32,000 bases of DNA from Synechocystis sp. PCC 6803 substr. PCC-P (GTDB lineage Bacteria > Cyanobacteriota > Cyanobacteriia > Cyanobacteriales > Microcystaceae), in assembly GCF_000284455.1 (NCBI RefSeq), contig NC_017039.1, forward strand, positions 660,001 through 692,000, read 5' to 3'. This document shows positions 1 to 15,442 of the stretch, one piece after another. Every line of letters starts with the position of its first letter. Within the stretch, counting starts at the first letter, position 1. Position numbers and translations under genes: made by a program. The notes beneath the pieces were generated by a model, which searched no databases, was not told the DNA's origin, and saw nothing but the letters and a program-made list of their open reading frames with translations.

Positions 1-686
1 TTCTTTACCCTTTAATGCAGGGGTATGATTCTGTCGCTGTAAATGCAGATGTGGAATTGGGGGGCACTGATCAAAAGTTTAATATTGCGGTGGGCCGGGA
101 TTTACAACGGCATTTTGGCAAAACTCCTCAATTTGGTTTACTGTTGCCGATTTTGCTGGGGACAGATGGACAACAAAAAATGTCCAAGTCTCTGAACAAT
201 TATGTGGGTTTACAGGAAGATGCTTTATCCATGTACTCCAAGCTGGAGAAGACGCCTGATCGCCTGTTGGGGGAATATTTCGAGTTACTAACTAACTTGG
301 ACTTGGCCGAGTTACCGGAGAATCCCAGGGAGTGCCAAAAGTTGCTCGCCAAGGAAGTTACAGCCCAGTTCCATGGAGTTGCAGGGGCGATCGCCGCCCA
401 AAAAACAGCGGAGGATATTGTCACCCAAGGTAAGGCGGGTAATACGGACAGTGTGCCGGAATTTTCCCTAGCTGAAATTACTTTTCCGGTGAAATTGGCC
501 TATCTCCTCAGTGCCAGTGGCCTGTGCCCCAGTAGTAGTGAAGGGAGAAGGCAAATCAAGGGGGGGGCTGTGCGCTTAGATGGCGATCGCCTAGAGGATG
601 TTAATCAGGAATATGCCGATCCCAAAATGTTAATTAATAAGGTGTTGCAAATGGGCAAGAAAAAATTTATTCGTCTGATTTCTTAA
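1..686 (+). CDS. tyrS: Tyrosyl-tRNA synthetase, C-terminal ~228 codons (5' end lies upstream of the window)
   Basis: The frame is open from the window edge ([10 protein letters not shown]...). It has the class I KMSKS signature ([11 protein letters not shown]) and a C-terminal S4-like RNA-binding tail ([15 protein letters not shown]). Confidence 0.9.
386..686 (+). repeat. Direct repeat copy A: the 3' end of the intact tyrS
   Basis: Aligns by hand to 2987-3290 (offset 2601, becoming 2604 at the end). There are 6 mismatches in 386-452, none in 453-538 (an 86-bp perfect core) and 9 in 539-614. The tail after that is strongly diverged and differs in length by 3 nt. Confidence 0.9.
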
Positions 687-853
687 TCTCCAAGGCGATC
701 AGCTTCTTAACTTTCACAAAAAGCGATCATTCTATTCGTAACAAGCTCACACTCGAAAAAAGAGGTTTAACGCTTTCCCAAAAATCGCACTGCGATATTG
801 TAGATCACACCAGCATAGATAGTATGCTGATGAGCAGGTTTTTTAGTTATGAG

Positions 854-859
854 TATAAT
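854..859 (+). promoter_or_regulatory. Candidate -10 hexamer (perfect TATAAT) 15 nt upstream of the first islet ORF
   Basis: TATAAT sits at 854-859. There is no Shine-Dalgarno sequence between it and the ATG at 874, so the transcript could be leaderless or short-leadered. The -35 region (tgagca, 831-836) is only a weak match. An alternative pair is TTGTAG 798-803 with TAGTAT 820-825 (16-nt spacer). Confidence 0.3.
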
Positions 860-873
860 CAAACGAATTTGAT

Positions 874-1227
874 ATGCCCACCCCACAAGCACTGTATCGC
901 GGGGCTGTACAAGCTCAAGGTGACGACATTACACAAAATGGGGGCTATACTCGCTCTTGGGCGCGGGGTACTCCTGTGACGGCTCAAGAGGGATTAGACT
1001 TTCTTGCTAAGATTGAGGAACAATGCAATGAGTCTCAGAAAGAACAACGAAATTCAGCTTTTGTCAAAGCTGAACGTTTTATCAAGAATGCTAGTAAAAA
1101 TGGAGGTGTTGATCAAAATTCTCAACCTCATCCTTTTCAAAATCCTAGACGTACTGTTCCAAACGCTCGTGTTGATATTGAAATTCGCAAAGGTTTGACT
1201 TTTATTCCTGCTAAAAATTTGGAATGA
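874..1227 (+). CDS. Hypothetical protein, 117 aa (islet ORF1)
   Basis: ATG-initiated ORF. Its stop overlaps the next start in ATGA (1224-1227). I recognise no motif. Composition switches sharply inside the ORF: 69/120 G+C in 874-993 versus 42/120 in 994-1113. Confidence 0.55.
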   Translation: MPTPQALYRGAVQAQGDDITQNGGYTRSWARGTPVTAQEGLDFLAKIEEQCNESQKEQRNSAFVKAERFIKNASKNGGVDQNSQPHPFQNPRRTVPNARVDIEIRKGLTFIPAKNLE

Positions 1228-2921
1228 CAATACTTTTTACCAAAATTCAAGCAATGTCAGACTCTACCGATTTGGATAGAGCAATAGATAAGCTTGACAA
1301 AATTTCTATTAATTTTGGTGCCGTAGATGAACAGATAAGGTGTTTTGCATTTTTATTAGCAATTGCCGAAGAAAATATTGCTGAGATTGTCTTAGGTATA
1401 TTAGTTAGAGGAATCATGAAATATGAACCAAATAGGGTTAATAATGAAGTTCTTTGGCTATTTTTGGCAGCCGTTTTGTCTCGTTCAAATATTACGCCTG
1501 CCAGTGCTTTAAGAATTAGTCTTTTAGGAATAGTATCTCGTATTGAAGATTGGGCATCACCCATTTTTGCATTACTAGTTACCGCATTAGATAGTTTTTT
1601 ACGTAATAGCCTGGAATATGGAGACCCTTTAATTGCAGAGCAAACTTTAGATTTTCTTGCCACTTGGGGCGAGAATTATGCTCAAGCACCTCGTACTTTA
1701 GAGCAAGTTGCAAAGATTAACTCTTTAGCTCGTTTAGTTTTACAAAAAGTTGATGAACCTATTCTTCAGGAGGAATGGTCAGAAGGGTTAGATTTATTTT
1801 TAAATATTGCTCATATTGCTTGTAAAATAAAATATTCAGATCAACGTATTTGGTCGTCTTCAGTAGAACTACTTAAGGATCTCTATCCTGTAAATATTTT
1901 AAATAATAATAATGAATATTCAGACAAGCACCGTCAAGTTCAAAAAAATATTCTAAAATTAATTGATTCTTCTCTGGCTGTAATCGGAACTATTTTTGTT
2001 AGAGGAGGCTTGTCGGTCGTAGTACACATTGAGCATTTAAATCAGGAACTAACATGGTCACTTGGAGCTAGCGCAATAGATAGAATCGAGCGTTTTTTTC
2101 AGGAAGTATCAAGCATTTTCAAACTAGGATTTCCTAAATTTAATCAAATACAATCAATTCAAGGTTCTTGGATTCAGGTTCTTAATCTTCCTCTAACTCC
2201 TAGGGAAGCTAATATTTTAGCAACAGAAATTGCTTCTTTATCCTCAAAAAATTACGAACAAAGTGAGATTAATCAAAATACTATTGATAGTTGGCGAGAA
2301 TGTGCAGAAATCCTTAGTGAAAAGGACTTTAAGATTAACTTATCTGTTTCCACAAAGGATATAGGATTACAGATTATTCCTCCCATTTCTACAGAGAATT
2401 TTGCCAATATCTCTACAGGAGCAACTACTGATTTTAATGAACAAGAAAGAACACACATTAGAATTCTCTCTTGTGATGTTCCACAAGCTAATAATATTGA
2501 AAGAATTTTGGAGCTTGCACAATTATTTGTTCAATATTCATCTTCAACTCAAACTATTAGTGATAAGTTTCTTGAGATAAGAGGAACAAAATCTAGAGAT
2601 TTTTTCTATTATCGTAGAGCAATTGAAATTCTTAACCTTATTGATTGGCGTGGGCATCCGACCAACGTCTGTTCTGCTTTGTTTCGCTTATCTAAAAAAG
2701 AGGCAAAAATGAGACTTCTTGCCTATCAATTTATTTCTTCTAATGTTGGTTCTGCTTGGCTACTGTGGAAAAATGCCAATGATCTTTCAGAGATTAATCC
2801 TGACAGTGCAGAAGAATTTTTAACGGCAACTTGTCCATCACTTTCTCAAAAAACAATTGAACGACGTTCACAAACATTAAAAGCATGGCTCACTATCTTT
2901 CTGCAATACTGGGATTCTTAA
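1224..2921 (+). CDS. Hypothetical protein, 565 aa (islet ORF2)
   Basis: A 565-codon open frame in very AT-rich DNA, where stops should be frequent, argues for real coding sequence. It is coupled to ORF1 by the ATGA overlap. I see no P-loop, no recognisable nuclease, methylase or peptidase motif, no signal peptide and no obvious TM segment. The basic, aromatic C-terminal ~110 aa (RDFFYYRRAIEILNLIDWRG...KAWLTIFLQYW) could be a nucleic-acid-binding module; that is an inference. Confidence 0.7.
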   Translation: MTILFTKIQAMSDSTDLDRAIDKLDKISINFGAVDEQIRCFAFLLAIAEENIAEIVLGILVRGIMKYEPNRVNNEVLWLFLAAVLSRSNITPASALRISLLGIVSRIEDWASPIFALLVTALDSFLRNSLEYGDPLIAEQTLDFLATWGENYAQAPRTLEQVAKINSLARLVLQKVDEPILQEEWSEGLDLFLNIAHIACKIKYSDQRIWSSSVELLKDLYPVNILNNNNEYSDKHRQVQKNILKLIDSSLAVIGTIFVRGGLSVVVHIEHLNQELTWSLGASAIDRIERFFQEVSSIFKLGFPKFNQIQSIQGSWIQVLNLPLTPREANILATEIASLSSKNYEQSEINQNTIDSWRECAEILSEKDFKINLSVSTKDIGLQIIPPISTENFANISTGATTDFNEQERTHIRILSCDVPQANNIERILELAQLFVQYSSSTQTISDKFLEIRGTKSRDFFYYRRAIEILNLIDWRGHPTNVCSALFRLSKKEAKMRLLAYQFISSNVGSAWLLWKNANDLSEINPDSAEEFLTATCPSLSQKTIERRSQTLKAWLTIFLQYWDS

Positions 2922-2984
2922 CGATTTGAGTTAGAACTACGACTGATTTTCATATTCTGGGGTTCATAAAGGGAAAAAATTTAA

Positions 2985-3290
2985 GAGGCGATCGCCGCCC
3001 AAAAAACAGCGGAGGATATTGTCACCCAGGGGAAAGCGGGCAATACGGATAGCGTGCCGGAATTTTCCCTAGCTGAAATTACTTTTCCGGTGAAATTGGC
3101 CTATCTCCTCAGTGCCAGTGGCCTGTGCCCCAGTAGTAGCGAAGGGAGAAGGCAAATCAAGGGAGGAGCGGTGCGCTTAGATGGTGATCGCCTGGGGGAT
3201 GTTAACCAGGAATACCAGAAACCGCAGGATTTGGACGGTAAGGTGCTCCAGGTAGGCAAGAAAAAATTTATTCGCTTCACTGCGAATTAG
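2985..3290 (+). pseudogene. Orphan tyrS 3' fragment (S4-like domain only); direct repeat copy B
   Basis: 101 sense codons in the tyrS frame ([27 protein letters not shown]...[11 protein letters not shown]) are closed upstream by TAA at 2982-2984. There is no catalytic domain and no ATG; the track's 3054 start is a GTG. Confidence 0.8.
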
Positions 3291-3443
3291 CAATTAAAAT
3301 AGTAATTTATAACTACTCTCTCCGTCGGCGATCGAGGTAGAATTGGGGCGAACTGATTTGACCGGTCAATCCTGCCCATTCCTGCCTGATCCGTCCAGAT
3401 TCAACCAATTACTGCCCAACCTTAGAATTGAGGTTATCGCCCC

Positions 3444-3833
3444 ATGAACAGTTTTGTTTTAATGGCCACCGTTATTCGGGAACCGGAACTGCGCTTCACC
3501 AAAGAAAATCAAACCCCCGTCTGCGAATTTCTAGTAGAATTCCCCGGCATGAGGGATGATTCCCCCAAGGAAAGTTTGAAAGTAGTTGGTTGGGGCAATT
3601 TGGCCAACACCATCAAAGAAACCTATCACCCTGGCGATCGCCTAATTATCGAAGGACGCTTAGGTATGAATATGATAGAACGGCAGGAAGGCTTTAAGGA
3701 AAAACGAGCTGAGCTAACTGCTTCCCGCATTAGTTTGGTGGATAGCGGCAATGGCATTAATCCTGGTGAGTTGTCTTCTCCTCCAGAACCTGAAGCAGTG
3801 GACCTTAGTAACACCGATGATATTCCGTTCTAA
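3444..3833 (+). CDS. Single-stranded DNA-binding (OB-fold) protein-like, 129 aa
   Basis: The N-terminal region is SSB-like (LMATVIREPELRFTKENQTPVCEF...GDRLIIEGRL). A disordered acidic tail ends in the canonical SSB tip DDIPF. I recall this as a ycf41-type cyanobacterial protein, unverified. Confidence 0.75.
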   Translation: MNSFVLMATVIREPELRFTKENQTPVCEFLVEFPGMRDDSPKESLKVVGWGNLANTIKETYHPGDRLIIEGRLGMNMIERQEGFKEKRAELTASRISLVDSGNGINPGELSSPPEPEAVDLSNTDDIPF

Positions 3834-3889
3834 CATCCACAATTCAGCTACTCCCAGTCAGATTTTTCCTTGAACTTGAAATTTCCACA

Positions 3890-4417
3890 ATGGCGGATTC
3901 CCTTCCCAATTTAGTCGATCTCAACTTCTTACCTTTTTTAACGGAGGCTGGGGAAATTGATCCGAACTACGAAAAACGTATTGGGGTTTACGCCATTTTT
4001 GACCAGCATCAGAATCTACAATACGTAGGCTATTCCCGTAATTTAGCCATTAGCCTGCTGCAACATTTGGTGCGTCAACCAGAGCATTGCCATGGGCTCA
4101 AAGTACACATCATCGACCGCCCCGATCGCCAATTATTAGTTCAAATTCAAAACCATTGGTTGGTGGGGCAAAATCCTCCTGGCAATGGTGAAAGTCAGAA
4201 AATTTGGGCTGAATCGATTAATGTGCAGGATTATTGGACTCCAGAAGAGGCCGCCACCGTTGCTAAAAGTGAACCAGGGGACACGCCCAAACTTTTGAAA
4301 AAAATTGCCCGTAGGCTAGAGGCAGAAGTGTTGGCAAAACTGGAAGCCAGGGGAGTGGCACAACAAATTCGCTTCAATCCCAAGCTGAAAGAACAAGGGC
4401 TGTTGGACATCACCTAG
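3890..4417 (+). CDS. GIY-YIG-like domain hypothetical protein, 175 aa
   Basis: GVYAIFDQHQNLQYVGYSRNL fits the GIY-x(9-11)-YIG spacing. The rest of the protein is unassigned. Confidence 0.5.
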   Translation: MADSLPNLVDLNFLPFLTEAGEIDPNYEKRIGVYAIFDQHQNLQYVGYSRNLAISLLQHLVRQPEHCHGLKVHIIDRPDRQLLVQIQNHWLVGQNPPGNGESQKIWAESINVQDYWTPEEAATVAKSEPGDTPKLLKKIARRLEAEVLAKLEARGVAQQIRFNPKLKEQGLLDIT

Positions 4418-4495
4418 GATTCGCCCATAGCTGTCCATTAAAATATAAGGGGATCCAAGATGACCCTGACTGAAAAAAATGGACATTCGAGAGTT

Positions 4496-4882
4496 TCAAG
4501 AAAGTAATGAGAGGCGCCAGTTGCGTAGTAGTTCTATGTTACCATTGACCCTAAATTCGGCAAATATTGCCATGGTGATATCAACCATGTGGGCTGACCT
4601 GGAGACAACTTTCGTGGGGCGATGAAATCTAGCAAACCAATGACGGTTATCTGAGTTGTTTCTCTCAATTCCTACTGTTTCTCTTTTGCTAATCCCATGA
4701 AACGCATCGGGATGTTCATCCAGCAGTTGTTGATAGGGCCTCCAGTCATCGGTGCAGTACACCGTCACTTTCCACTTTGCCAGTCTCTCCAGCAAACGAC
4801 TCAGGGTTTGACTATCACGATTTCCCAGTTCCCAGTTCCCAGTCGATGAGTCTCCCAGTAACACGCTCATATGCCTTATCAT
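4496..4882 (-). mobile_element. IS1-family-like transposase, C-terminal part only (5'-truncated IS remnant)
   Basis: YCTDDWRPYQQLL and GIERNNSDNRHWFARFHRPTKVVSRS match the IS1-type DDE C-terminal pattern (TD-W--Y ... IER-N---R----R--RKT---S). Only about 120 nt separate this ORF from the next gene, so the N-terminal HTH/first-D region has no room. No convincing terminal inverted repeats are visible. Confidence 0.65.
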
Positions 4883-5004
4883 TATCTATTTGAAACTCTC
4901 CATTATTGATTTACAGAGCTTTCCTTTCTTCGTTTCTGGCCCAGTTTCAGGGATCCGCCTCACTCTTCGTTTCTTCGTTGTTGTGAGTTCACGCTCAGCC
5001 GGTA

Positions 5005-7107
5005 CTATTTTTCCCCGTCTTTAGAGGCACGTTCTTTTTCATCTCCATACAAAGGAGAAGTTCCGGTTCCTGTCATTAATAATTGTTGTTGGGGCACCCC
5101 AATGGCAATTTCCTGGGATTCAAAGGCCACTTTCACCCGCAGTCGCAATTCTCTGGCCACGTCCCATTGTTCCCCCGGCAGGGTCTTAAGCCAAATACGA
5201 ATAAGAATACCTTGGTGAGAAACCTCTTCAATACCCTTGAGTTCCGGTGCCTGGAGCATTTTAGGATGCCACCACGGATCGTGGTACAGACCCAGCGCCA
5301 CCTGTTGCAAAACGGCGATCGCCTTTTTGGGATCAGCATCAGCCGCCACCATAACGGAATAATCTACCCTGGACCAGTCTTTAGTTTGATTACACACTGT
5401 GCCAATGGCTCCGTTGGGAATGGTGACTAAATCCCCGTTGGGACAACGGATGCGAGTAACAAATAGGTTTGTATCTTCCACTACTCCTTCAAACTCGCCA
5501 ATCAGAACGAAATCATTAATGGCGAAGGCATCACTCATCAGATTAGAAATACCGGCAATTAAATCCTTGATCAAGTTTTGGGAACCGAAAGACACCGCAA
5601 AACCGATGATCCCTGCCCCAGCCAGTACTGTGGCCACCGGCACATCGAACAAACTAAGGGAAAAGACAAAGGCAGTAAAAATACAGACCACCAGGTTAAT
5701 GCCCCTGACAGCACTACTGACAGTGTTAATTCTAATTTTTCTTCGTGTATATTTGGCAGTTTGTAAAATAGCATAATCGTTTTCAATGGTATGGAAAAAA
5801 GACTCAATTAAAAAATCAGATATTTTAATTAAAATTATTGCCGATAACCAAATTAAAGTTAAAGAAATGGGAGTGCCCGATAACTGTCGTCCTAAACGTC
5901 GAGTGTTAGGAAAAACCTGCAGAAAAAAAGCACTACCACGGATCCAGATAATAAACAGGAAAAAAATTAGTATTCTCCGGGTAAATACAACTTGTTTGAG
6001 GCGGTTTTTCAGGAAGTCGTAAAAATCCTTGCCTTGGAAAAGTTCAAGAATATTTTCAAAAATTTTCTGGTTATCCAAAGAAAATGTCAGGGGAGGATTT
6101 TTTTTACTGTCCCCCCAGCCAACATTTCCGAATAGTATAGTTTTGGAGTAAGCACTTAAATAATAAAGAAAAATAGCTATCCGGTCTAAAATTTGAAAAG
6201 CGAAGGAATAGCGGGGAATGGCAGCAATATTTTTAAAAATAGACGCATCAATGTAATTATAATCAAAATTTGGGTCTTCCTCCTCCGCCTTAACTAAACA
6301 ATTAATAGCCATCTTTAGTAAGTGAATTCTGTGTCCCAGCCACCGATAAATAAATAGCACTACCAACGAAACTGTGACCACAATGGTGACAATTACTAGG
6401 GCAACTTTTATTTGTCTTCTCAGGGCTTCTGGTTGTCGTTCCCGCCTCGCTCGCATCAGGGCATTGCGGACTTGATCTACGGTTTCGGACGCTAAATCTT
6501 CCGGGGTAAGGGCGTATAAATCAGCATCAGCTTTGGTAATGGTGCGAAGAATTTGTGGCCGGAGATTTTTGTCATCGCTAATTTGAATAATGATCGCCCC
6601 ATTGAGAATAGAACTAGCAACATTTAAGGTTTCTGGATCAAAACCCCGCTGGACAATTTCTTTAAACTTACTTTCAATACGTTGTTGACGATAAACAATT
6701 GGACTAAGGGAAGAATCTCCTTCTTTACTAGCATTTCCTGTGGGCACAGCAATCAAAAAAATTGGCTCTCCATCTACCCTAACGGTGGTGTAATCCAAGT
6801 TACCAATTCTACCGGATAAATCTGATTCAAAGCCTAGATTAAAAGCTTTATTTTGCAGGGGGAAATCAGACTTGACGGGATCCACTAGGTCAATTTGGGG
6901 CGGTAGTTGACTAAGGAGAGTTTGTGCCGACTGGGCTTGGGCAAAACCTAGGCTTAGCAGTAAGGTGAGCAGAGTAAGGGCGATTAATTGACTTAAATTT
7001 AATCTTTGATGGCGAAAAATATAATTTTTTCTATTTGTTGGGAGCACTCTGACAACGAATAAATTCCAAAGGGAGGTTATCACTATCGGCAATGAATAAA
7101 ACTTCAT
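5005..7107 (-). CDS. MscS-family mechanosensitive channel protein with a large N-terminal extracytoplasmic/membrane extension
   Basis: The C-terminal MscS core is present (LAGAGIIGFAVSFGSQNLIKDLIAGISNLMSDAFAINDFVLIGEFEGVVEDTNLFVTRIR). There is a signal-like segment (LIALTLLTLLLSLGFAQA) and several TM stretches. The start is uncertain: TTG 7122, ATG 7107 or GTG 7047, all of which overlap the upstream gene. Confidence 0.8.
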   Translation of the reverse strand: MKFYSLPIVITSLWNLFVVRVLPTNRKNYIFRHQRLNLSQLIALTLLTLLLSLGFAQAQSAQTLLSQLPPQIDLVDPVKSDFPLQNKAFNLGFESDLSGRIGNLDYTTVRVDGEPIFLIAVPTGNASKEGDSSLSPIVYRQQRIESKFKEIVQRGFDPETLNVASSILNGAIIIQISDDKNLRPQILRTITKADADLYALTPEDLASETVDQVRNALMRARRERQPEALRRQIKVALVIVTIVVTVSLVVLFIYRWLGHRIHLLKMAINCLVKAEEEDPNFDYNYIDASIFKNIAAIPRYSFAFQILDRIAIFLYYLSAYSKTILFGNVGWGDSKKNPPLTFSLDNQKIFENILELFQGKDFYDFLKNRLKQVVFTRRILIFFLFIIWIRGSAFFLQVFPNTRRLGRQLSGTPISLTLIWLSAIILIKISDFLIESFFHTIENDYAILQTAKYTRRKIRINTVSSAVRGINLVVCIFTAFVFSLSLFDVPVATVLAGAGIIGFAVSFGSQNLIKDLIAGISNLMSDAFAINDFVLIGEFEGVVEDTNLFVTRIRCPNGDLVTIPNGAIGTVCNQTKDWSRVDYSVMVAADADPKKAIAVLQQVALGLYHDPWWHPKMLQAPELKGIEEVSHQGILIRIWLKTLPGEQWDVARELRLRVKVAFESQEIAIGVPQQQLLMTGTGTSPLYGDEKERASKDGEK

Positions 7108-7477
7108 AAATATGATCACCAATTTGTTGTTGCTGGGGATTTAAAAGAATTTTTAACGGCTCAATTTGTTCTGGATTGGTTTGATAGGCTTGGCTAAAAC
7201 TTTGGCTGAGATTATTCAACCATTCCGGTAAACTTTCTACCTGGTCTGTTAGATCAAAGGAGATATGATAGTAGCCCACGTAATGTTCATCTTTGAAGGC
7301 ATCAGGGGCGGGTTGGGGTTGGGGAATTTGAATTAATTCAATGCGTCCCCCCAGACCAGTCAACCAGCAAGCTAAGGTATAACCAGTGGTGAACCTTTCC
7401 CCCACGGTAAAACCCAATAGCTCATAAAAGGCGATCGCCCGATGGATATTAGCAGTACGAATAGAAACATGGTGCAT
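7031..7477 (-). CDS. VOC/glyoxalase-bleomycin-resistance family protein
   Basis: MHHVSIRTANIHRAIAFYELLGFTV is a typical VOC N-terminal beta-alpha-beta motif. The start is an ATG. Confidence 0.7.
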   Translation of the reverse strand: MHHVSIRTANIHRAIAFYELLGFTVGERFTTGYTLACWLTGLGGRIELIQIPQPQPAPDAFKDEHYVGYYHISFDLTDQVESLPEWLNNLSQSFSQAYQTNPEQIEPLKILLNPQQQQIGDHIYEVLFIADSDNLPLEFIRCQSAPNK

Positions 7478-7548: not shown

Positions 7549-7944
7549 ATGTCCGAACTGAAAATCCTAATTGTTGACGACGAACCCCACATTGTAATTC
7601 TGCTGGAAGAGGTGTTTGAGCTTTTAGAAGAAGATTACGGGGTGGAGTTATTGACCGCCATGGATGGGGAAAAAGCCTTGGCTTTAGCAGTGGAACATCA
7701 ACCCCAATTGGTTATTTTAGATGTGATGTTGCCCAAGATTAGTGGTTTAGCAGTTTGTCAACGTATTAAAGAAAATCCTGAGCTAGCTAATACCACGGTG
7801 ATTTTGCTCACGGCCAAGGGCCAACAGTTCGATCGCCAGGCAGGGTTAGCCGCGGGGGCGGATTGCTACGTAACTAAACCCTTTGGCCCCAGGGATTTAT
7901 TGGCCCAAGCGAAGGGAATTTTGGGTATTGAAGAAGAGGATTAA
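7549..7944 (+). CDS. Stand-alone CheY-like response regulator receiver
   Basis: ILIVDDEP..., LVILDVMLPKISG (phospho-acceptor Asp), LLTAKG and YVTKPF. There is no output domain. Confidence 0.85.
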   Translation: MSELKILIVDDEPHIVILLEEVFELLEEDYGVELLTAMDGEKALALAVEHQPQLVILDVMLPKISGLAVCQRIKENPELANTTVILLTAKGQQFDRQAGLAAGADCYVTKPFGPRDLLAQAKGILGIEEED

Positions 7945-11107: not shown

Positions 11108-11809
11108 ATGTTGGAAAGAATTCTGGAGCCAGAGGTAATGGACACCGAAGCAGAAGCAATGGACTACGATGCCATGGACTTTCAAGCGGTTAATCTGGCT
11201 TTTGCCCAGAGAGCTTGCCAACTCGGCCCAAGCAAAGCCACAGTGTTAGATGCCGGTACTGGTACGGCCCGTATTCCCATTCTACTCGCCCAGTTACGTC
11301 CTGCATGGCAAATCACTGCCATCGATTTTGCTCGTTCTATGTTGGCGATCGCCAAGGAAAATGTGATCGCAGCGGGGTGTGAAACTCAAATTTGCCTGGA
11401 ATTTGTCGATGCAAAACAATTGCCCTACGCCAATGGTTCCTTTGACGGAGTGATTGCCAATAGCCTCTGTCATCATTTGCCCAGGCCGCTGGATTTTTTG
11501 CGGGAGGTAAAACGGGTGCTCAAGCCCCACGGTTTCCTATTAATTAGGGATTTAATTCGCCCCGAATCCCCGGAAAAATTAGCTGATTTCGTAACGGCGA
11601 TCGGCTCCGACTACAACGACCAGCAGAGGAAACTTTTTGCTGATTCCCTCCACGCTTCCCTAACTATCGCTGAAATACAAGACTATCTCCAGCATTTGGG
11701 TTGGGTCGGTGATGATGGTCCCAACCTGGAGTTACACCTTTACCAGTCTTCCGATCGCCATTGGACATTGGAGAAGAAGTTCCAAAGTTCAACCATAGTA
11801 CAGCGATAG
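11108..11809 (+). CDS. Class I SAM-dependent methyltransferase
   Basis: VLDAGTGTARIP (motif I), FDGVIANSLCHHL and LKPHGFLLIRD. Confidence 0.75.
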   Translation: MLERILEPEVMDTEAEAMDYDAMDFQAVNLAFAQRACQLGPSKATVLDAGTGTARIPILLAQLRPAWQITAIDFARSMLAIAKENVIAAGCETQICLEFVDAKQLPYANGSFDGVIANSLCHHLPRPLDFLREVKRVLKPHGFLLIRDLIRPESPEKLADFVTAIGSDYNDQQRKLFADSLHASLTIAEIQDYLQHLGWVGDDGPNLELHLYQSSDRHWTLEKKFQSSTIVQR

Positions 11810-12013
11810 GACTGCAACGAAGGGAATCAGGTTTCCGCTGATTTGCGTTAAAATTCTCGTAAGCTTTCCCCATCAGGGATTTTTCTCTCGATCCATATGC
11901 TACTTTTTTTGGCCCATCCGGCACCAACCTCCCACCAGTACCCTCCAAGACGGATACCCTAAGGCCCTGTTTCGCCCCGTCCCGTCCTCCCACTGCTATC
12001 TAGGAGCTTGCCC

Positions 12014-12346
12014 ATGCTACACCGGAAAATCTATCAACTTTGTACCGATGGCCACGAAGTCAGTCTTTACCTGAGGGACCAACAAAGGTGGGTAGAAAAT
12101 GCCAAAATTCTGACACTGGAGGGGGATTTGGTCACTTTCCGCTATGAGACCGAAGAAGAGGATGAGGTCTGTGCCTGGGAAGAAATGGTGCGCCTGGAAA
12201 GCATTGGCTCCGTTAACCGTAAGTTGGCCTCCGTTTCCCGCCTTGGTCATGAACTGCTAATTTCTGAAGATTGTCCAGAGGCGGAACAGTTACTAGCCCG
12301 ATCGCCAAAGTCCCACCAGGAAGAAGAAGAGGAAGACTGCGACTAA
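12014..12346 (+). CDS. Hypothetical protein, ~110 aa, with an acidic C-terminus
   Basis: ATG at 12014; the track start at 12008 is a TTG. No motif recognised. Confidence 0.45.
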   Translation: MLHRKIYQLCTDGHEVSLYLRDQQRWVENAKILTLEGDLVTFRYETEEEDEVCAWEEMVRLESIGSVNRKLASVSRLGHELLISEDCPEAEQLLARSPKSHQEEEEEDCD

Positions 12347-12392
12347 ACTGGAACAGATTAAAATAAATTCCCCTATTTTTCCCGGCCCCACT

Positions 12393-13049
12393 ATGACCGA
12401 AAATATTGTCCGCGAAACCAGCAAGAAAAAAGAAAGCCCCCCGGAAAATACCTGGTTAGAGTTGGGCAAAACCATGGTTACCGCGGTTATCCTGGCGATC
12501 GGTATTCGGACTTTTGTGGCCGAAGCTCGCTACATTCCCTCTTCCTCCATGGAGCCGACCCTGCAGATTAACGATCGCCTGATCATTGAAAAGATCAGTT
12601 ACCGATTGCGGGATCCGGAGCGGGGAGAAATTGTGGTCTTTAACCCCACTGACGCCCTAAAAGCAAAAAACTTCCACGATGCTTTTATTAAGCGCATTAT
12701 CGGTTTACCGGGGGATGAAGTTAGGGTTTCCCAAGGCAACGTTTATGTCAACGGCAAAATGCTGGACGAAAATTACATTGCGGCTCCTCCCGCCTATGAA
12801 TATGGCCCAGTGAAAGTGCCCGATGATCAGTATTTAGTGTTAGGGGATAACCGCAACAACAGCTATGACTCCCACTATTGGGGCTTTGTCCCCCGGGAAA
12901 AATTGCTCGGCCGTGCCTTTGTCCGTTTTTGGCCCGTACCCCGGGTAGGCCTGTTGACTGATGATGCTGAGCGAGAAGCAGTAGAAATTAGCCCCCAAGC
13001 ATGGGAAAGTCCAGCCATTTCCCCCCAGACAGTGCCGGAGAGTCGTTAG
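12393..13049 (+). CDS. lepB: Signal peptidase I
   Basis: One N-terminal TM segment. Catalytic Ser box IPSSSMEPTL, Lys box FIKRIIGLPGD, and GDNRNNSYDSHYWGFVP. Confidence 0.9.
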   Translation: MTENIVRETSKKKESPPENTWLELGKTMVTAVILAIGIRTFVAEARYIPSSSMEPTLQINDRLIIEKISYRLRDPERGEIVVFNPTDALKAKNFHDAFIKRIIGLPGDEVRVSQGNVYVNGKMLDENYIAAPPAYEYGPVKVPDDQYLVLGDNRNNSYDSHYWGFVPREKLLGRAFVRFWPVPRVGLLTDDAEREAVEISPQAWESPAISPQTVPESR

Positions 13050-13090
13050 ATTATAAGCAATCACCACTGTGCGGAGAGAATCAAATAATT

Positions 13091-13714
13091 ATGGTTACCC
13101 CCACCCTCGTTAAAACCATCGCCACTGCTGCTCCCCAAACCTTTGACCAATTTTTGAAGCAATGTCCCGAAGAAGGCCGCTTTGAGTGGGTAAATGGAAA
13201 AATCATCGAAATGGTTAACACCCGCGAACATAAACTGATTGCTGAGTTCATTCTTTTCGCTTTCCATGACGAAATACGTCGTCTCTCATTAAACTTTGAT
13301 GTCACCACCCAGGCCACCATCAGAACTGAGATTAAGACCGGCGGTTTTCATGGACGCATTCCGGATGTGAGTGTTATCGATCGCCATGTATGGCGCTCCG
13401 ATCCCGGTGACTACAGAGCTTTAACTGAGCCAGTCCAGTTAGCAGTGGAGGTGGTTTCTAGTAACTGGGAAACGGATTATTTTGATAAATTGGATGAGTA
13501 TCAACGCCTTGGCATCAAAGAATATTGGATTGTCGATTATCTGGCGATCGGTAGTCGGGACATTTTAGGGGAACCAAAGCAGCCCACCGTTTCCATCTAT
13601 ACCCTCAATCCAGAAGGAGTTTACGATCGCCAAGCTTTTCAAGGGCAAGAAACCTTAGTATCCCCCACGTTTGCGGAACTGGTATTGACCCCAGAGCAAA
13701 TTTTTAACGCTTAG
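13091..13714 (+). CDS. Uma2-family (DUF820) restriction-endonuclease-like protein
   Basis: FEWVNGKIIEM, PDVSVI, LAVEVVSSN and KEYWIVD are the typical Uma2 blocks. ATG 13091 is preferred over 13001, which overlaps lepB. Confidence 0.7.
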   Translation: MVTPTLVKTIATAAPQTFDQFLKQCPEEGRFEWVNGKIIEMVNTREHKLIAEFILFAFHDEIRRLSLNFDVTTQATIRTEIKTGGFHGRIPDVSVIDRHVWRSDPGDYRALTEPVQLAVEVVSSNWETDYFDKLDEYQRLGIKEYWIVDYLAIGSRDILGEPKQPTVSIYTLNPEGVYDRQAFQGQETLVSPTFAELVLTPEQIFNA

Positions 13715-13990
13715 TATTGGCATCAACAAGACAAAAAGTGGGGGTTGTATCGCGTCTCAGCCAGGATGGGGCGGAGAGTTTGGTAGAGGCTTAACTATAA
13801 GTCCACCAAAAGATAGAACTTCCTCAATTATTCACCTATGGCGTGAGTCAGCAGAAGAGGAATGTAGCTGACAATACAGAGACTTTACCTGGGATTTCTG
13901 TTAGTTTTGAGCAGGGGATAGGGTGGGCACAACTCTCTTCTTTTTTTAAACTCTAACTATCAGAAAACCATTTAGGAGCGCTCTTTACAG

Positions 13991-15442
13991 ATGCAGGATT
14001 TTTTGAGTAACACAGTGGCGTTGTCGCGGCTACAATTTGCCGTCACTGCCATTTTCCATATGCTTTGGCCGGTATTAACCACTGGTATGGGCATTTATTT
14101 AGTAATTATTGAAGGATTATGGCTGAAAACTCGTAATTTAGACTATTATCACCATGCTCGCTTTTGGGCTCGGCTCTACGTTTTAAATTTCGGTATTGGA
14201 GTAGCTACCGGTTTGCCCATGGCCTTTCAATTCGGTCTAAACTGGGCTCCTTTTTCGGAATCCGTAGGGGACTTCTTCGGCACAGTGCTGGGCTTTGAGG
14301 GCACCATGGCCTTTATGCTCGAAGCCAGTTTTTTAGGCATTATGCTATTTGGTTGGGACCGGGTTCCGCCCTTAATTCATTACCTCGCCACCATTTTGGT
14401 AGCCATTGGAGCAAATCTTTCCACCTTTTGGATTCTTTCGGCTAATTCCTGGTTACAGACCCCCGCTGGGGGCATTTTTGTCGATGGAAAATTTGTGGTG
14501 CAGGACTATTTTGCGGCGATCGCCAATCCGTTTATGGTTAATAGTTTCCTGCACATGTTCTTTGCCACTTTAGAAACCTCTATGTTTGTCATTGGGGGTA
14601 TCAGTGCTTGGTGTATTCTCACCGGTCGTCAACCGCAATTTTTTGCCCGCTCTTTGCAGGTAATTTTAGTGGTGGTGATGGCGGTGGCCCCTCTGCAAAT
14701 TTTCATTGGTCATTTGAGTGCGGAACAAGTATCAGTGCATCAACCGGCTAAACTTGCGGCCATGGAAGCTCTCTGGGAAACGGTGCCAGCCAAAACCCCC
14801 GCGGCTTGGAGTGTGGTGGCTTTACCCAACGATAAAGCAGAAAAAAATGACTGGGAACTGAGCATTCCCGGCGCATTGAGCTACATTTTGGAACTTAAAC
14901 CCCAACTGGATAAACCCATTCAAGGCCTGAAAGATTGGGCCCCGGTTGATCGCCCGAGGATGGTGGGCTTAATTTACTATTCTTTCCGCATTATGGTGGC
15001 CATTGGACTCTTTTTTGCCGCTCTCATGGCCGTGACAGTACTGCAATGGTTGCGGGGGAAATTGAAACCGGAAATTATCAGCCAACAAAAATGGCTACTG
15101 CGGGCTTGGGTCTTTGCCGCTCCGTTGGGTTATTTAGCAGTGGAAACGGGCTGGATTGTTCGTTGTGTGGGGCGACAACCCTGGATCGTTTACGGAGAGA
15201 TGCGGACAGCAGAATCGGCCTCCAACCTGCCCCCCGGTGAAATTCTTTTTTCCCTAACCGGGTTGAGTGTAATGTATATCGTCTTTTTAATTGCCACTCT
15301 CTATTTCGGCAGTCGCATTATCCGCAATGGGCCGGATTTAACCTTGCCTGCTCCCCGAGGTTCCGAAGCTTCCCTTTGGGGCACTGTGACCAAGCATGAA
15401 ACCAACCGCCGTCCCGCTGAAATTGCTGAAGTTAAGGAGTAA
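13991..15442 (+). CDS. cydA: Cytochrome bd quinol oxidase subunit I
   Basis: LSRLQFAVTAIFHMLWP..., GWIVRCVGRQPW. It is polytopic and is immediately followed by subunit II. Confidence 0.9.
   Translation: MQDFLSNTVALSRLQFAVTAIFHMLWPVLTTGMGIYLVIIEGLWLKTRNLDYYHHARFWARLYVLNFGIGVATGLPMAFQFGLNWAPFSESVGDFFGTVLGFEGTMAFMLEASFLGIMLFGWDRVPPLIHYLATILVAIGANLSTFWILSANSWLQTPAGGIFVDGKFVVQDYFAAIANPFMVNSFLHMFFATLETSMFVIGGISAWCILTGRQPQFFARSLQVILVVVMAVAPLQIFIGHLSAEQVSVHQPAKLAAMEALWETVPAKTPAAWSVVALPNDKAEKNDWELSIPGALSYILELKPQLDKPIQGLKDWAPVDRPRMVGLIYYSFRIMVAIGLFFAALMAVTVLQWLRGKLKPEIISQQKWLLRAWVFAAPLGYLAVETGWIVRCVGRQPWIVYGEMRTAESASNLPPGEILFSLTGLSVMYIVFLIATLYFGSRIIRNGPDLTLPAPRGSEASLWGTVTKHETNRRPAEIAEVKE

Follow-up and report, generated by a model that had tools for sequence, protein, structure and literature searches.

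Integrase-borne islands and prophages enter the 3' ends of genes for tRNA, transfer-messenger RNA and proteins, where they supply a replacement end, leave the displaced native end as a direct repeat on their far side and are missing from precise empty sites in relatives. A similar layout is found at the end of the tyrosyl-tRNA synthetase (TyrRS) gene tyrS (slr1031) of Synechocystis sp. PCC 6803 substr. PCC-P, where a cassette of two genes, slr1032 and slr1033, lies between two copies of the tyrS end. We analysed this locus within a stretch of 32,000 nucleotides (nt), referred to as the window (NC_017039.1, forward strand, positions 660,001 to 692,000); coordinates are positions in the window unless a contig is named. 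Unlike the integrase islands, the locus has no integrase or excisionase, and its repeat is about 300 nt long and mosaic where theirs is a short identical core; this cassette also occurs elsewhere without any structure resembling an attachment (att) site, and gene end and cassette differ in divergence. Insertion sequences and transposons differ as well: the insert contains no transposase, its sole end-to-end inverted match is 21 nt at 71%, and the duplication measures 304 nt, not a few bases. We think it probable, with moderate confidence, that the insertion was made by recombination without an integrase of its own: a homologous exchange in tyrS and an illegitimate joint at a site of highly iterated palindrome 1 (HIP1), a 10-nt palindrome common in cyanobacterial DNA, followed by spread by homologous recombination.

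Campbell-type integration, exemplified by lacZ-end duplications of 109-950 bp (PMC3240628), resembles the locus in that a direct duplication brackets the insert, a closed unit is formed (2601 nt here), one gene copy stays intact and host recombination suffices. Duplications of this size in the homologous locus are read there as the trace of one crossover between the locus and a molecule that had re-circularised (PMC3240628). The present case differs in being natural, with a circle known only as a proposal; its downstream tyrS copy lacks a donor part, and a foreign patch at 299-385 lies outside the duplication. Canonical homology-facilitated illegitimate recombination (HFIR) combines an insertion with a deletion and joins DNA at 3-10 bp of microhomology (PMC3240628). 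It shares with the locus a one-sided homologous anchor, here the tyrS exchange within 228-298, and one illegitimate joint at a short motif, here the HIP1 decamer. However, the recipient segment is duplicated in our case, not deleted, and any microhomology with the donor at the HIP1 decamer is hypothetical. Accessory-gene transfer by way of flanking core genes, as set out in PMC13344027, has in common with the locus a cassette younger than its flanks, presence or absence among near-identical strains and discontinuous donor patches; the right arm here is instead a duplicated piece of the left-hand gene, so that tyrS homology stands on both sides.

The two tyrS ends form a direct repeat (copy A, 383-686; copy B, 2984-3290) in register at a spacing of 2601 nt. 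Positions 383-613 matched 2984-3214 at 94% identity over 231 nt without gaps, and a second in-register block (638-673 and 3239-3274) kept the 2601-nt spacing. The left edge of the repeat lies exactly at the HIP1 decamer GGCGATCGCC (386-395 and 2987-2996). A direct repeat of the tyrS end of about 300 bp had been claimed in an earlier reading of the letters alone (the sequence-only reading), and this identity, the second block and the constant spacing show it to be real. That reading had also held the DNA between the copies to be compositionally foreign, and a G+C scan agreed, placing the insert far outside the background of the window: G+C was 0.354 in 687-2986 and 0.481 in the remainder of the window (z = -4.4), and the lowest value in any other 2.3-kb stretch, 0.402, was above that of the insert. 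GGCC density was 0 per kb in 687-2986 and 5.25 per kb outside. The claim that the insert lacks HIP1 was correct as an observation, but the HIP1-free gap of 2405 nt (583-2988) was not significant within the window alone (Poisson P ~0.1). The longest such gap in the window lies elsewhere (11345-14516, 3171 nt), and G+C is normal there (0.44-0.51), unlike in the insert. Absence of HIP1 becomes meaningful only across genomes: 15 of 15 full-length cassette copies from different hosts were HIP1-free, where ~28 sites were expected from flank densities.

The upstream copy belongs to the functional tyrS, which occupies 15-686 on the plus strand. The window start cuts the gene, leaving its 3' two-thirds with matches to the Pfam families tRNA-synt_1b, SYY_C-terminal and S4; the complete gene encodes 404 amino acids (aa) in contigs L085 and L086. 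Its alignments show the functional tyrS to be chimeric, with a native 5' part and an imported 3' part. The match to L088, a contig from a strain with an empty site (see below), continues to position 298, with 0 mismatches in 231-298 and 99.2-99.6% identity further upstream, and the left homologous exchange point was placed in the interval 228-298. Four-way and eight-way alignments delimited a foreign tyrS patch beyond it (X', 299-385, plus strand), in which 25 of 87 positions differ from L088. This patch was 0.64-0.74 identical to all other sampled tyrS, and L088, CP101709, S. salina and PCC 6714 agreed with one another against PCC 6803. Comparison with copy B showed the following part of copy A (386-605, plus strand) to be a native-like, patchy mosaic: the copies do not differ at all in 386-427 and 453-538, and six differences fall in 428-452 and eight in 539-605. 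We interpret this mosaic as gene conversion or heteroduplex repair.

The remainder of the gene, and the DNA just behind it, came from elsewhere. The segment 606-731 (plus strand) comprises the last 27 codons, the stop codon and ~45 nt of post-stop DNA; it was 90-93% identical to the tyrS tail of L096, a tyrS-bearing contig from an unrelated metagenomic cyanobacterium, and 55-60% identical to native Synechocystis tails. L096 has no cassette, and a convergent ABC-transporter gene follows its tyrS. The alignment shows the foreign origin of the tyrS tail, and the TyrRS at work in PCC 6803 therefore ends in a foreign C-terminus. The sequence-only reading had started the insert at 687 and called the tyrS end before it intact. 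Neither point survived: foreign DNA begins inside tyrS at ~299, giving an imported tract of ~299-2986, the last 80 nt of the gene are foreign, and the downstream copy is the native one. A spacer (732-814), unalignable with a different and longer spacer in PCC 6714, separates the imported tail from the cassette.

Comparison with the tyrS ends of empty-site genomes identified copy B (2987-3290, plus strand) as the displaced native 3' end, since these ends match the downstream copy. It differed from the tyrS end of L088 by 1 mismatch in 304 nt. At the amino-acid level, its tail was 89% identical to that of S. salina, and the tail of copy A reached at most 72% among 80 cyanobacterial tyrS loci from species-representative genomes. 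Within copy B lies a 78-codon open remnant (3054-3290, plus strand; Pfam SYY_C-terminal and S4) annotated as ssr1720, 'similar to tyrosyl tRNA synthetase'. A long-annotated oddity of this model strain is thereby explained: ssr1720 is the displaced native end of tyrS, and the C-terminus that its TyrRS now carries is foreign. In a literature search, ssr1720 was found in one expression table only.

Empty sites were present in three relatives. In S. salina LEGE 00031 (L001), an ssb-like gene and then a GIY-YIG-like gene follow directly after tyrS. Two further empty sites were found through contigs encoding an identical ssb-like protein: chromosome CP101709.1 (L087), 98.6% identical to the window downstream of the joint, and the Logan contig L088 (source SRR35657378), 99.35% identical downstream and ~99.5% identical to PCC 6803 in all. 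The three genomes have a tyrS of the 405-codon type with a tail of copy B type. An insertion at the tyrS 3' end with a regenerated end, as the sequence-only reading had proposed, is supported by these alleles, in which tyrS is directly followed by the ssb-like gene; the duplicated arrangement is shared by PCC 6714 and CS-94 and is lacking in the three others, so it is not common to all close relatives. The alignments with the empty sites thus show the insertion and its polarity.

These results bear on a local origin, in which the tyrS end was duplicated in tandem, a cassette later landed between the copies and the upstream copy diverged. The identical stretches 386-427 and 453-538 would fit such a history, as would the derived states that the two copies share in 386-605 relative to S. 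salina. Divergence in place is impossible, however, for a segment (606-731) that matches a distant cyanobacterium through 45 nt of post-stop DNA and resembles copy B at 55-60%. The patch 299-385 is also foreign and lies outside the duplication, and no duplication without the cassette was seen among the relatives examined. We regard a local origin as hardly credible.

Two assembly features of the tyrS contigs were recorded. In L087 (CP101709.1, ~7700-7850) a G-run in tyrS lacks 1 nt, which breaks the frame, and many genes around it are annotated in pieces; such breaks are probably long-read homopolymer errors and not real pseudogenes. In L093 (Logan SRR26090725) the part of copy B corresponding to window positions 3029-3053 carries six copy-A bases (at 3029, 3032, 3035, 3041, 3050 and 3053). 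Live gene conversion was considered as their source, but the bases coincide with a variant bubble between shared stretches and an assembly-graph switch is equally likely; they were not used.

The same composite was found in PCC 6714 (CP007542.1), whose locus was reached via the displaced-fragment protein P0096, and in CS-94: tyrS, open reading frame 1 (ORF1, slr1032), ORF2 (slr1033), the 78-codon tyrS fragment and ssb stand in the order seen in PCC 6803. The right flank in PCC 6714 is homologous up to the identical joint, where HIP1 is mutated to GTCGATAGCC, and by this comparison the junction is shared. Repeat spacing in PCC 6714 is 2688 nt and its two copies are 82% identical. The shared part order and right joint indicate that the composite arose once.

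Synonymous divergence (dS) between PCC 6803 and PCC 6714 was uneven along the locus. In the cassette it was 0.12 for ORF1 and 0.18 for ORF2; in the flanks it was 0.64 for a chlI-like gene, 0.68 for the tyrS 5' part, 0.68 for ssb and 1.2 for the GIY-YIG-like gene. Because cassette dS is below flank dS, the cassettes' common ancestor is estimated to be much more recent than that of the genomes: by this measure, the cassette is younger than its flanks. The displaced fragments of the two strains gave a dS of 1.3 with a ratio of nonsynonymous to synonymous divergence (dN/dS) of 0.08, indicating that each was inside a working tyrS until recently. In copy A of PCC 6714, 606-660 is native-type and 95% identical to the tail of the PCC 6803 clade, and the L096 type is limited to the last few codons and the post-stop DNA; such a tail fits an allele that passed through other hosts. 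The element-borne tyrS segments of PCC 6803 and PCC 6714 were 56-81% identical, the cassettes 90-93%. Together, the young cassette, the PCC 6714 mosaic and the empty sites in very close relatives show a segregating allele that moves between lineages and takes parts of the tyrS of its former hosts along. Identified for this locus are alleles with an empty site, the lineage from which the replacement tail came and another lineage that carries the composite.

PCC 6714 also carries (L094, 5582-5743) ~90 extra nt between the tyrS stop codon and the cassette, with no alignable counterpart in PCC 6803. An inverted repeat within them, GGGCACCTCGA … TCGAGGTGCTC, could be a small hairpin element or a terminator.

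Insertion by recombination without an integrase would have proceeded as follows. The imported segment (~299-2986) would consist of the tyrS 3' end of another cyanobacterium, a short piece of downstream DNA and the AT-rich slr1032-slr1033 cassette, the substrate being DNA of an L096-like cyanobacterium with the cassette ~50 nt downstream of tyrS. Its left side would have entered by homologous exchange within tyrS, and its right side by a single illegitimate joint between the cassette flank and the HIP1 decamer at tyrS position 386. Since the homology continues downstream of this joint, the last 100 native codons were kept and shifted 2.6 kb downstream as the dead ssr1720; the imported tail would complete the working tyrS. 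A single crossover with a circularised DNA holding the tyrS 3' end and the cassette (Campbell type) would yield exactly this topology, and a one-sided homologous plus illegitimate event in natural transformation would be equivalent. The Campbell-type circle would measure 2601 nt, with a predicted junction of position 2986 to position 386 reading …AAATTTAAGA directly followed by GGCGATCGCC…. We infer a Campbell-type or HFIR-like origin; a Campbell-type event, or one topologically equivalent to it, is favoured because a duplicated homologous locus points to a single crossover (PMC3240628).

In its later spread between Synechocystis lineages, the composite would have used tyrS as its left arm and the displaced fragment with downstream DNA as its right arm. 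Conversion of copy A by copy B is the presumed cause of the mosaic and would explain the native-like 386-605; the start of the native-like patch at exactly 386 would follow from the fact that homology to copy B goes no further left. Synechocystis is naturally transformable, and natural transformation would be the likely vehicle. It often leaves multiple discontinuous donor segments close together, according to PMC13344027. The route of acquisition, which the sequence-only reading had left unexplained, is no longer wholly so: the topology corresponds to host homologous recombination plus one illegitimate joint. Read in this way, the locus is a clean natural example of such recombination, not a new kind of mobile element, and a well-resolved natural case of an accessory cassette entering an essential gene and spreading between lineages by host recombination alone.

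Several points weigh against this account. L088 is a short-read de Bruijn contig, and a graph jump is possible at the 42-nt and 86-nt stretches in which copies A and B do not differ; in favour of a true empty site are its native-type sequence at 299-385 and the evidence of CP101709.1, a long-read chromosome. A donor with an L096-like tyrS followed by the cassette was not found in 80 tyrS, 38 metagenomic and 34 viral loci, so the donor arrangement is hypothetical. The two tyrS tails closest to the A type (L096 and L176) have other genes downstream, and neither the phage collection nor the viral contigs contained a circular donor molecule of the composite. Under a pure Campbell model, both copies should be hybrid. 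Copy B is wholly native, which fits only a crossover at the extreme left or a later conversion, and the patch 299-385 lies outside the duplicated segment; at least one later transfer and a conversion step are therefore needed. If the allele reached the PCC 6803 lineage from a diverged donor, its right-hand exchange must have lain within ~40 nt of the joint, which would be either a coincidence or a sign of HIP1 site preference. Finally, the cargo proteins may have a role in their own mobility.

No recombinase is detectable at the locus. Neither ORF matched recombinase, integrase, transposase or nuclease families in Pfam, NCBIfam or PADLOC, and the confident structural models of ORF1 and ORF2 showed no recombinase-like fold when compared with the PDB and BFVD. 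The gene lists of PCC 6803 and PCC 6714 contain no integrase within +/-8 kb, and no tRNA lies within 8 kb. These family, fold and tRNA scans confirmed what the sequence-only reading had noted, the lack of an integrase, transposase, tRNA or convincing terminal inverted repeat, the best inverted match being 71%. The same reading had recognised in the locus the classic footprint of an integrative element. This interpretation fared less well: the defining recombinase is absent, and the cassette occurs elsewhere in at least six contexts without target duplication.

The footprint could still be that of a decayed element, placed in the tyrS 3' end by a tyrosine or serine integrase through an attP with a replacement tail and deprived by later deletion of its integrase and most other parts, so that the cassette alone is left between attL and attR. 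A housekeeping 3' end, a regenerated frame, direct repeats and a precise empty site are what such an element leaves. Also in its favour are the native type of the two displaced fragments, which worked until recently, the identity of the joint between two lineages and the homologue that part of cargo gene 2 has in Microcystis phages. However, there is no integrase remnant: 687-2986 is fully covered by two intact ORFs and flanks of ~190 nt and ~65 nt. No integrase adjoins the cassette in its other contexts either, the tyrS segments of PCC 6803 and PCC 6714 have diverged far more than an element with cassettes 90-93% identical would suggest, and the patch 299-385 lies outside any att-like repeat. 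We consider a decayed element unlikely.

The ORF1-ORF2 pair, joined by the same ATGA overlap as in PCC 6803, was found in many cyanobacteria at 45-82% identity and in at least six unrelated contexts. It lies in a glycosyltransferase cluster in Floridanema, between unrelated genes in Coleofasciculus, after a Uma2-family gene in L084, immediately upstream of alaS in Nostocales (L097-L101, 6001-10825) and beside obg in Spirulina (L102, 6001-9118). None of 38 metagenomic cassette loci had tyrS beside the cassette. Similarity between copies runs from ~60 nt before ORF1 to ~20 nt after ORF2, and the termini are not conserved. G+C was 0.35-0.42 in all copies examined. Many copies at metagenomic and viral loci are truncated or decaying. 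No target duplications surround the cassette in the other genomes (L081, L083, L097 and L102). Three of ~7 distinct contexts (tyrS, alaS and obg) adjoin highly conserved translation genes, which may reflect chance or the use of conserved genes as recombination anchors.

The ends of the insert in PCC 6803 were compared with each other and with these copies. An imperfect 21-nt inverted repeat (71%) is present at 694-714 and 2976-2996, each arm consisting of a HIP1 or HIP1-like motif and CTTAA; it is the sole terminal inverted repeat and is built around the HIP1 palindrome. Joined head to tail, the insert ends give a near-palindrome, TTAAGA-GGCGATCGCC-TTCTTAA. L096 carries GGTGATCGCCTTCTTAA just past its tyrS stop codon. 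In other genomes, no consistent HIP1 was found at the cassette ends.

Such ends would be expected if slr1032 and slr1033 were a self-mobilising unit of a new kind, inserting at HIP1 palindromes without an integrase or transposase, with the joint formed independently in the PCC 6803 and PCC 6714 lineages. Along with the inverted HIP1 (or HIP1-like) and CTTAA at both ends, the low age of the cassette compared with the flanking genes, the native state of copy B in the two lineages, the joint exactly at HIP1 in both, the HIP1-free, AT-rich cassette in 15 of 15 hosts and two proteins of no known fold or family all agree with this possibility. If it were true, HIP1 would gain a concrete role as a recombination target. 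Other genomes show neither a flanking duplication nor a consistent HIP1 at the ends, however, and conservation ends ~60 nt before ORF1 and ~20 nt after ORF2 without conserved termini. PCC 6803 and PCC 6714 also share parts that do not belong to the cassette (the end of the L096-like tail and 2922-2986), so the composite was transferred in one piece, as a single allele. The proteins showed no nuclease or recombinase motif, and the decay of many copies speaks against an active unit. We hold self-mobilisation to be very improbable.

Under recombination by the host, HIP1 may have had a different part. In PCC 7002, integration rises up to 7-fold when a homology arm contains a homologous HIP1 site (GCGATCGC), and HIP1 has been proposed to act like Chi (bioRxiv 10.1101/2024.09.10.611283); its function is still described as unsettled in PMC5861425. 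In agreement with a Chi-like stimulator, the decamer GGCGATCGCC at 2987-2996 coincides with the illegitimate joint, where copy B and the duplicated homology have their left edge. In contrast to the published case, the link here is one of sequence position, and copy A has to switch at 386 in any event, since the homology ends there. Near the other mosaic breakpoints there are additional HIP1 or HIP1-like sites (255-264 and 582-591). With three HIP1 or HIP1-like sites within 350 nt of tyrS, this proximity is plausibly chance. The decamer at the joint is therefore suggestive, its position could be accidental, and an active role for HIP1 is something we infer. With both the joint and the homology edge on a HIP1 decamer, the locus offers a natural substrate for the Chi-like proposal in cyanobacterial transformation.

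The cassette itself begins with a conserved leader (815-873, plus strand), at which similarity to the L084 copy starts. Cargo gene 1 (ORF1, slr1032; 874-1227, plus strand) encodes 117 aa without a family match and was modelled with a predicted local distance difference test (pLDDT) score of 89. Cargo gene 2 (ORF2, slr1033; 1224-2921, plus strand) is a 565-aa ORF, annotated at 555 aa, with a match to phrog_38246 and a weak match to DUF7226 (model pLDDT 84). The right flank (2922-2986) resembles L084 up to ~20 nt past the ORF2 stop codon, and the rest is common to PCC 6714 up to the joint; by eye, 2946-2986 had no similarity to the DNA downstream of the L096 tyrS. A scan for promoters and terminators gave no difference from shuffled sequence.

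Sequence profiles from Pfam, NCBIfam, PADLOC and the PDB gave no significant functional assignment for the cargo. Among the PADLOC defence-system models, ORF1 had a chance-level match only (E = 0.02) and ORF2 none. Foldseek searches of the PDB and BFVD returned nothing at E <1e-3: the N-terminal half of ORF2 gave armadillo/HEAT-like noise and ORF1 no match. No paper on slr1032 or slr1033 was found in literature searches.

ORF2 could nevertheless be divided into two parts by its relatives. Residues 1-257 (window 1224-1994), a helical domain, match phrog_38246 (E = 1e-62). To this family belongs gp104 of Microcystis phage Ma-LMM01 (L175, 4001-4801), a stand-alone protein of 266 aa that is 43% identical to the ORF2 domain, and stand-alone proteins of the gp104 type are also present in MaMV-DC and related Microcystis phages. 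Residues ~272-549 are common to a wider family of ~430-aa proteins combining DUF6575 and DUF7226 (P0121, P0124, P0125, P0139 and P0142). The N-termini of these relatives match PADLOC PD-T4-10_B (E 1e-11 to 4e-7), a part that ORF2 lacks. A role of the cargo in phage-host conflict is plausible. A widespread, HIP1-free and AT-rich cyanobacterial gene pair with a Microcystis phage homologue of one domain is a candidate for the study of phage-host interaction.

Some observations on the cargo genes stand apart. In some IMG/VR contigs, a C-terminal remnant of ORF1 precedes the phrog_38246 domain, as if a truncated cassette had been captured. Between PCC 6803 and PCC 6714 (874-1227 and L094 5833-6186), ORF1 had a dN of 0.106 and a dS of 0.124, giving a dN/dS of ~0.85, and ORF2 had a dN/dS of ~0.25. 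One PCC 6714 annotation calls the ORF1 product at just 83 aa (P0066). Selection on ORF1, as estimated from these values, may be relaxed in one lineage.

The far side of the insertion is marked by the ssb-like gene (3444-3833, plus strand), which Pfam and the empty-site genomes identify as the native downstream neighbour of tyrS. It is followed by a 175-aa gene with a weak GIY-YIG match and then by an IS1-family transposase fragment, a 128-aa ORF at 4496-4882 on the minus strand. This fragment lies outside the insert and is the only transposase-like ORF nearby. Inverted arms of 34 nt (4477-4510 and 4879-4912), 74% complementary, bracket it. Contig L092 departs from the window at 4584, inside the IS1-family remnant, and has an ABC-transporter gene beyond.

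Contig L089 (Logan SRR16464681) matched the window at 100% identity over a stretch that starts with the stop codon of the displaced fragment (L089 3750-4979, window 3289-4518). On its left side, a hybrid histidine-kinase gene (GAF/PAS/HisKA/HATPase/Response_reg/Hpt) stands in place of tyrS; the contig may represent an engineered strain, a rearrangement or a chimeric assembly. Further downstream, a second low-G+C stretch (5500-6100, 0.34-0.38), the lowest outside the insert, falls within the 5' part of an mscS-like gene (5005-7122, minus strand).

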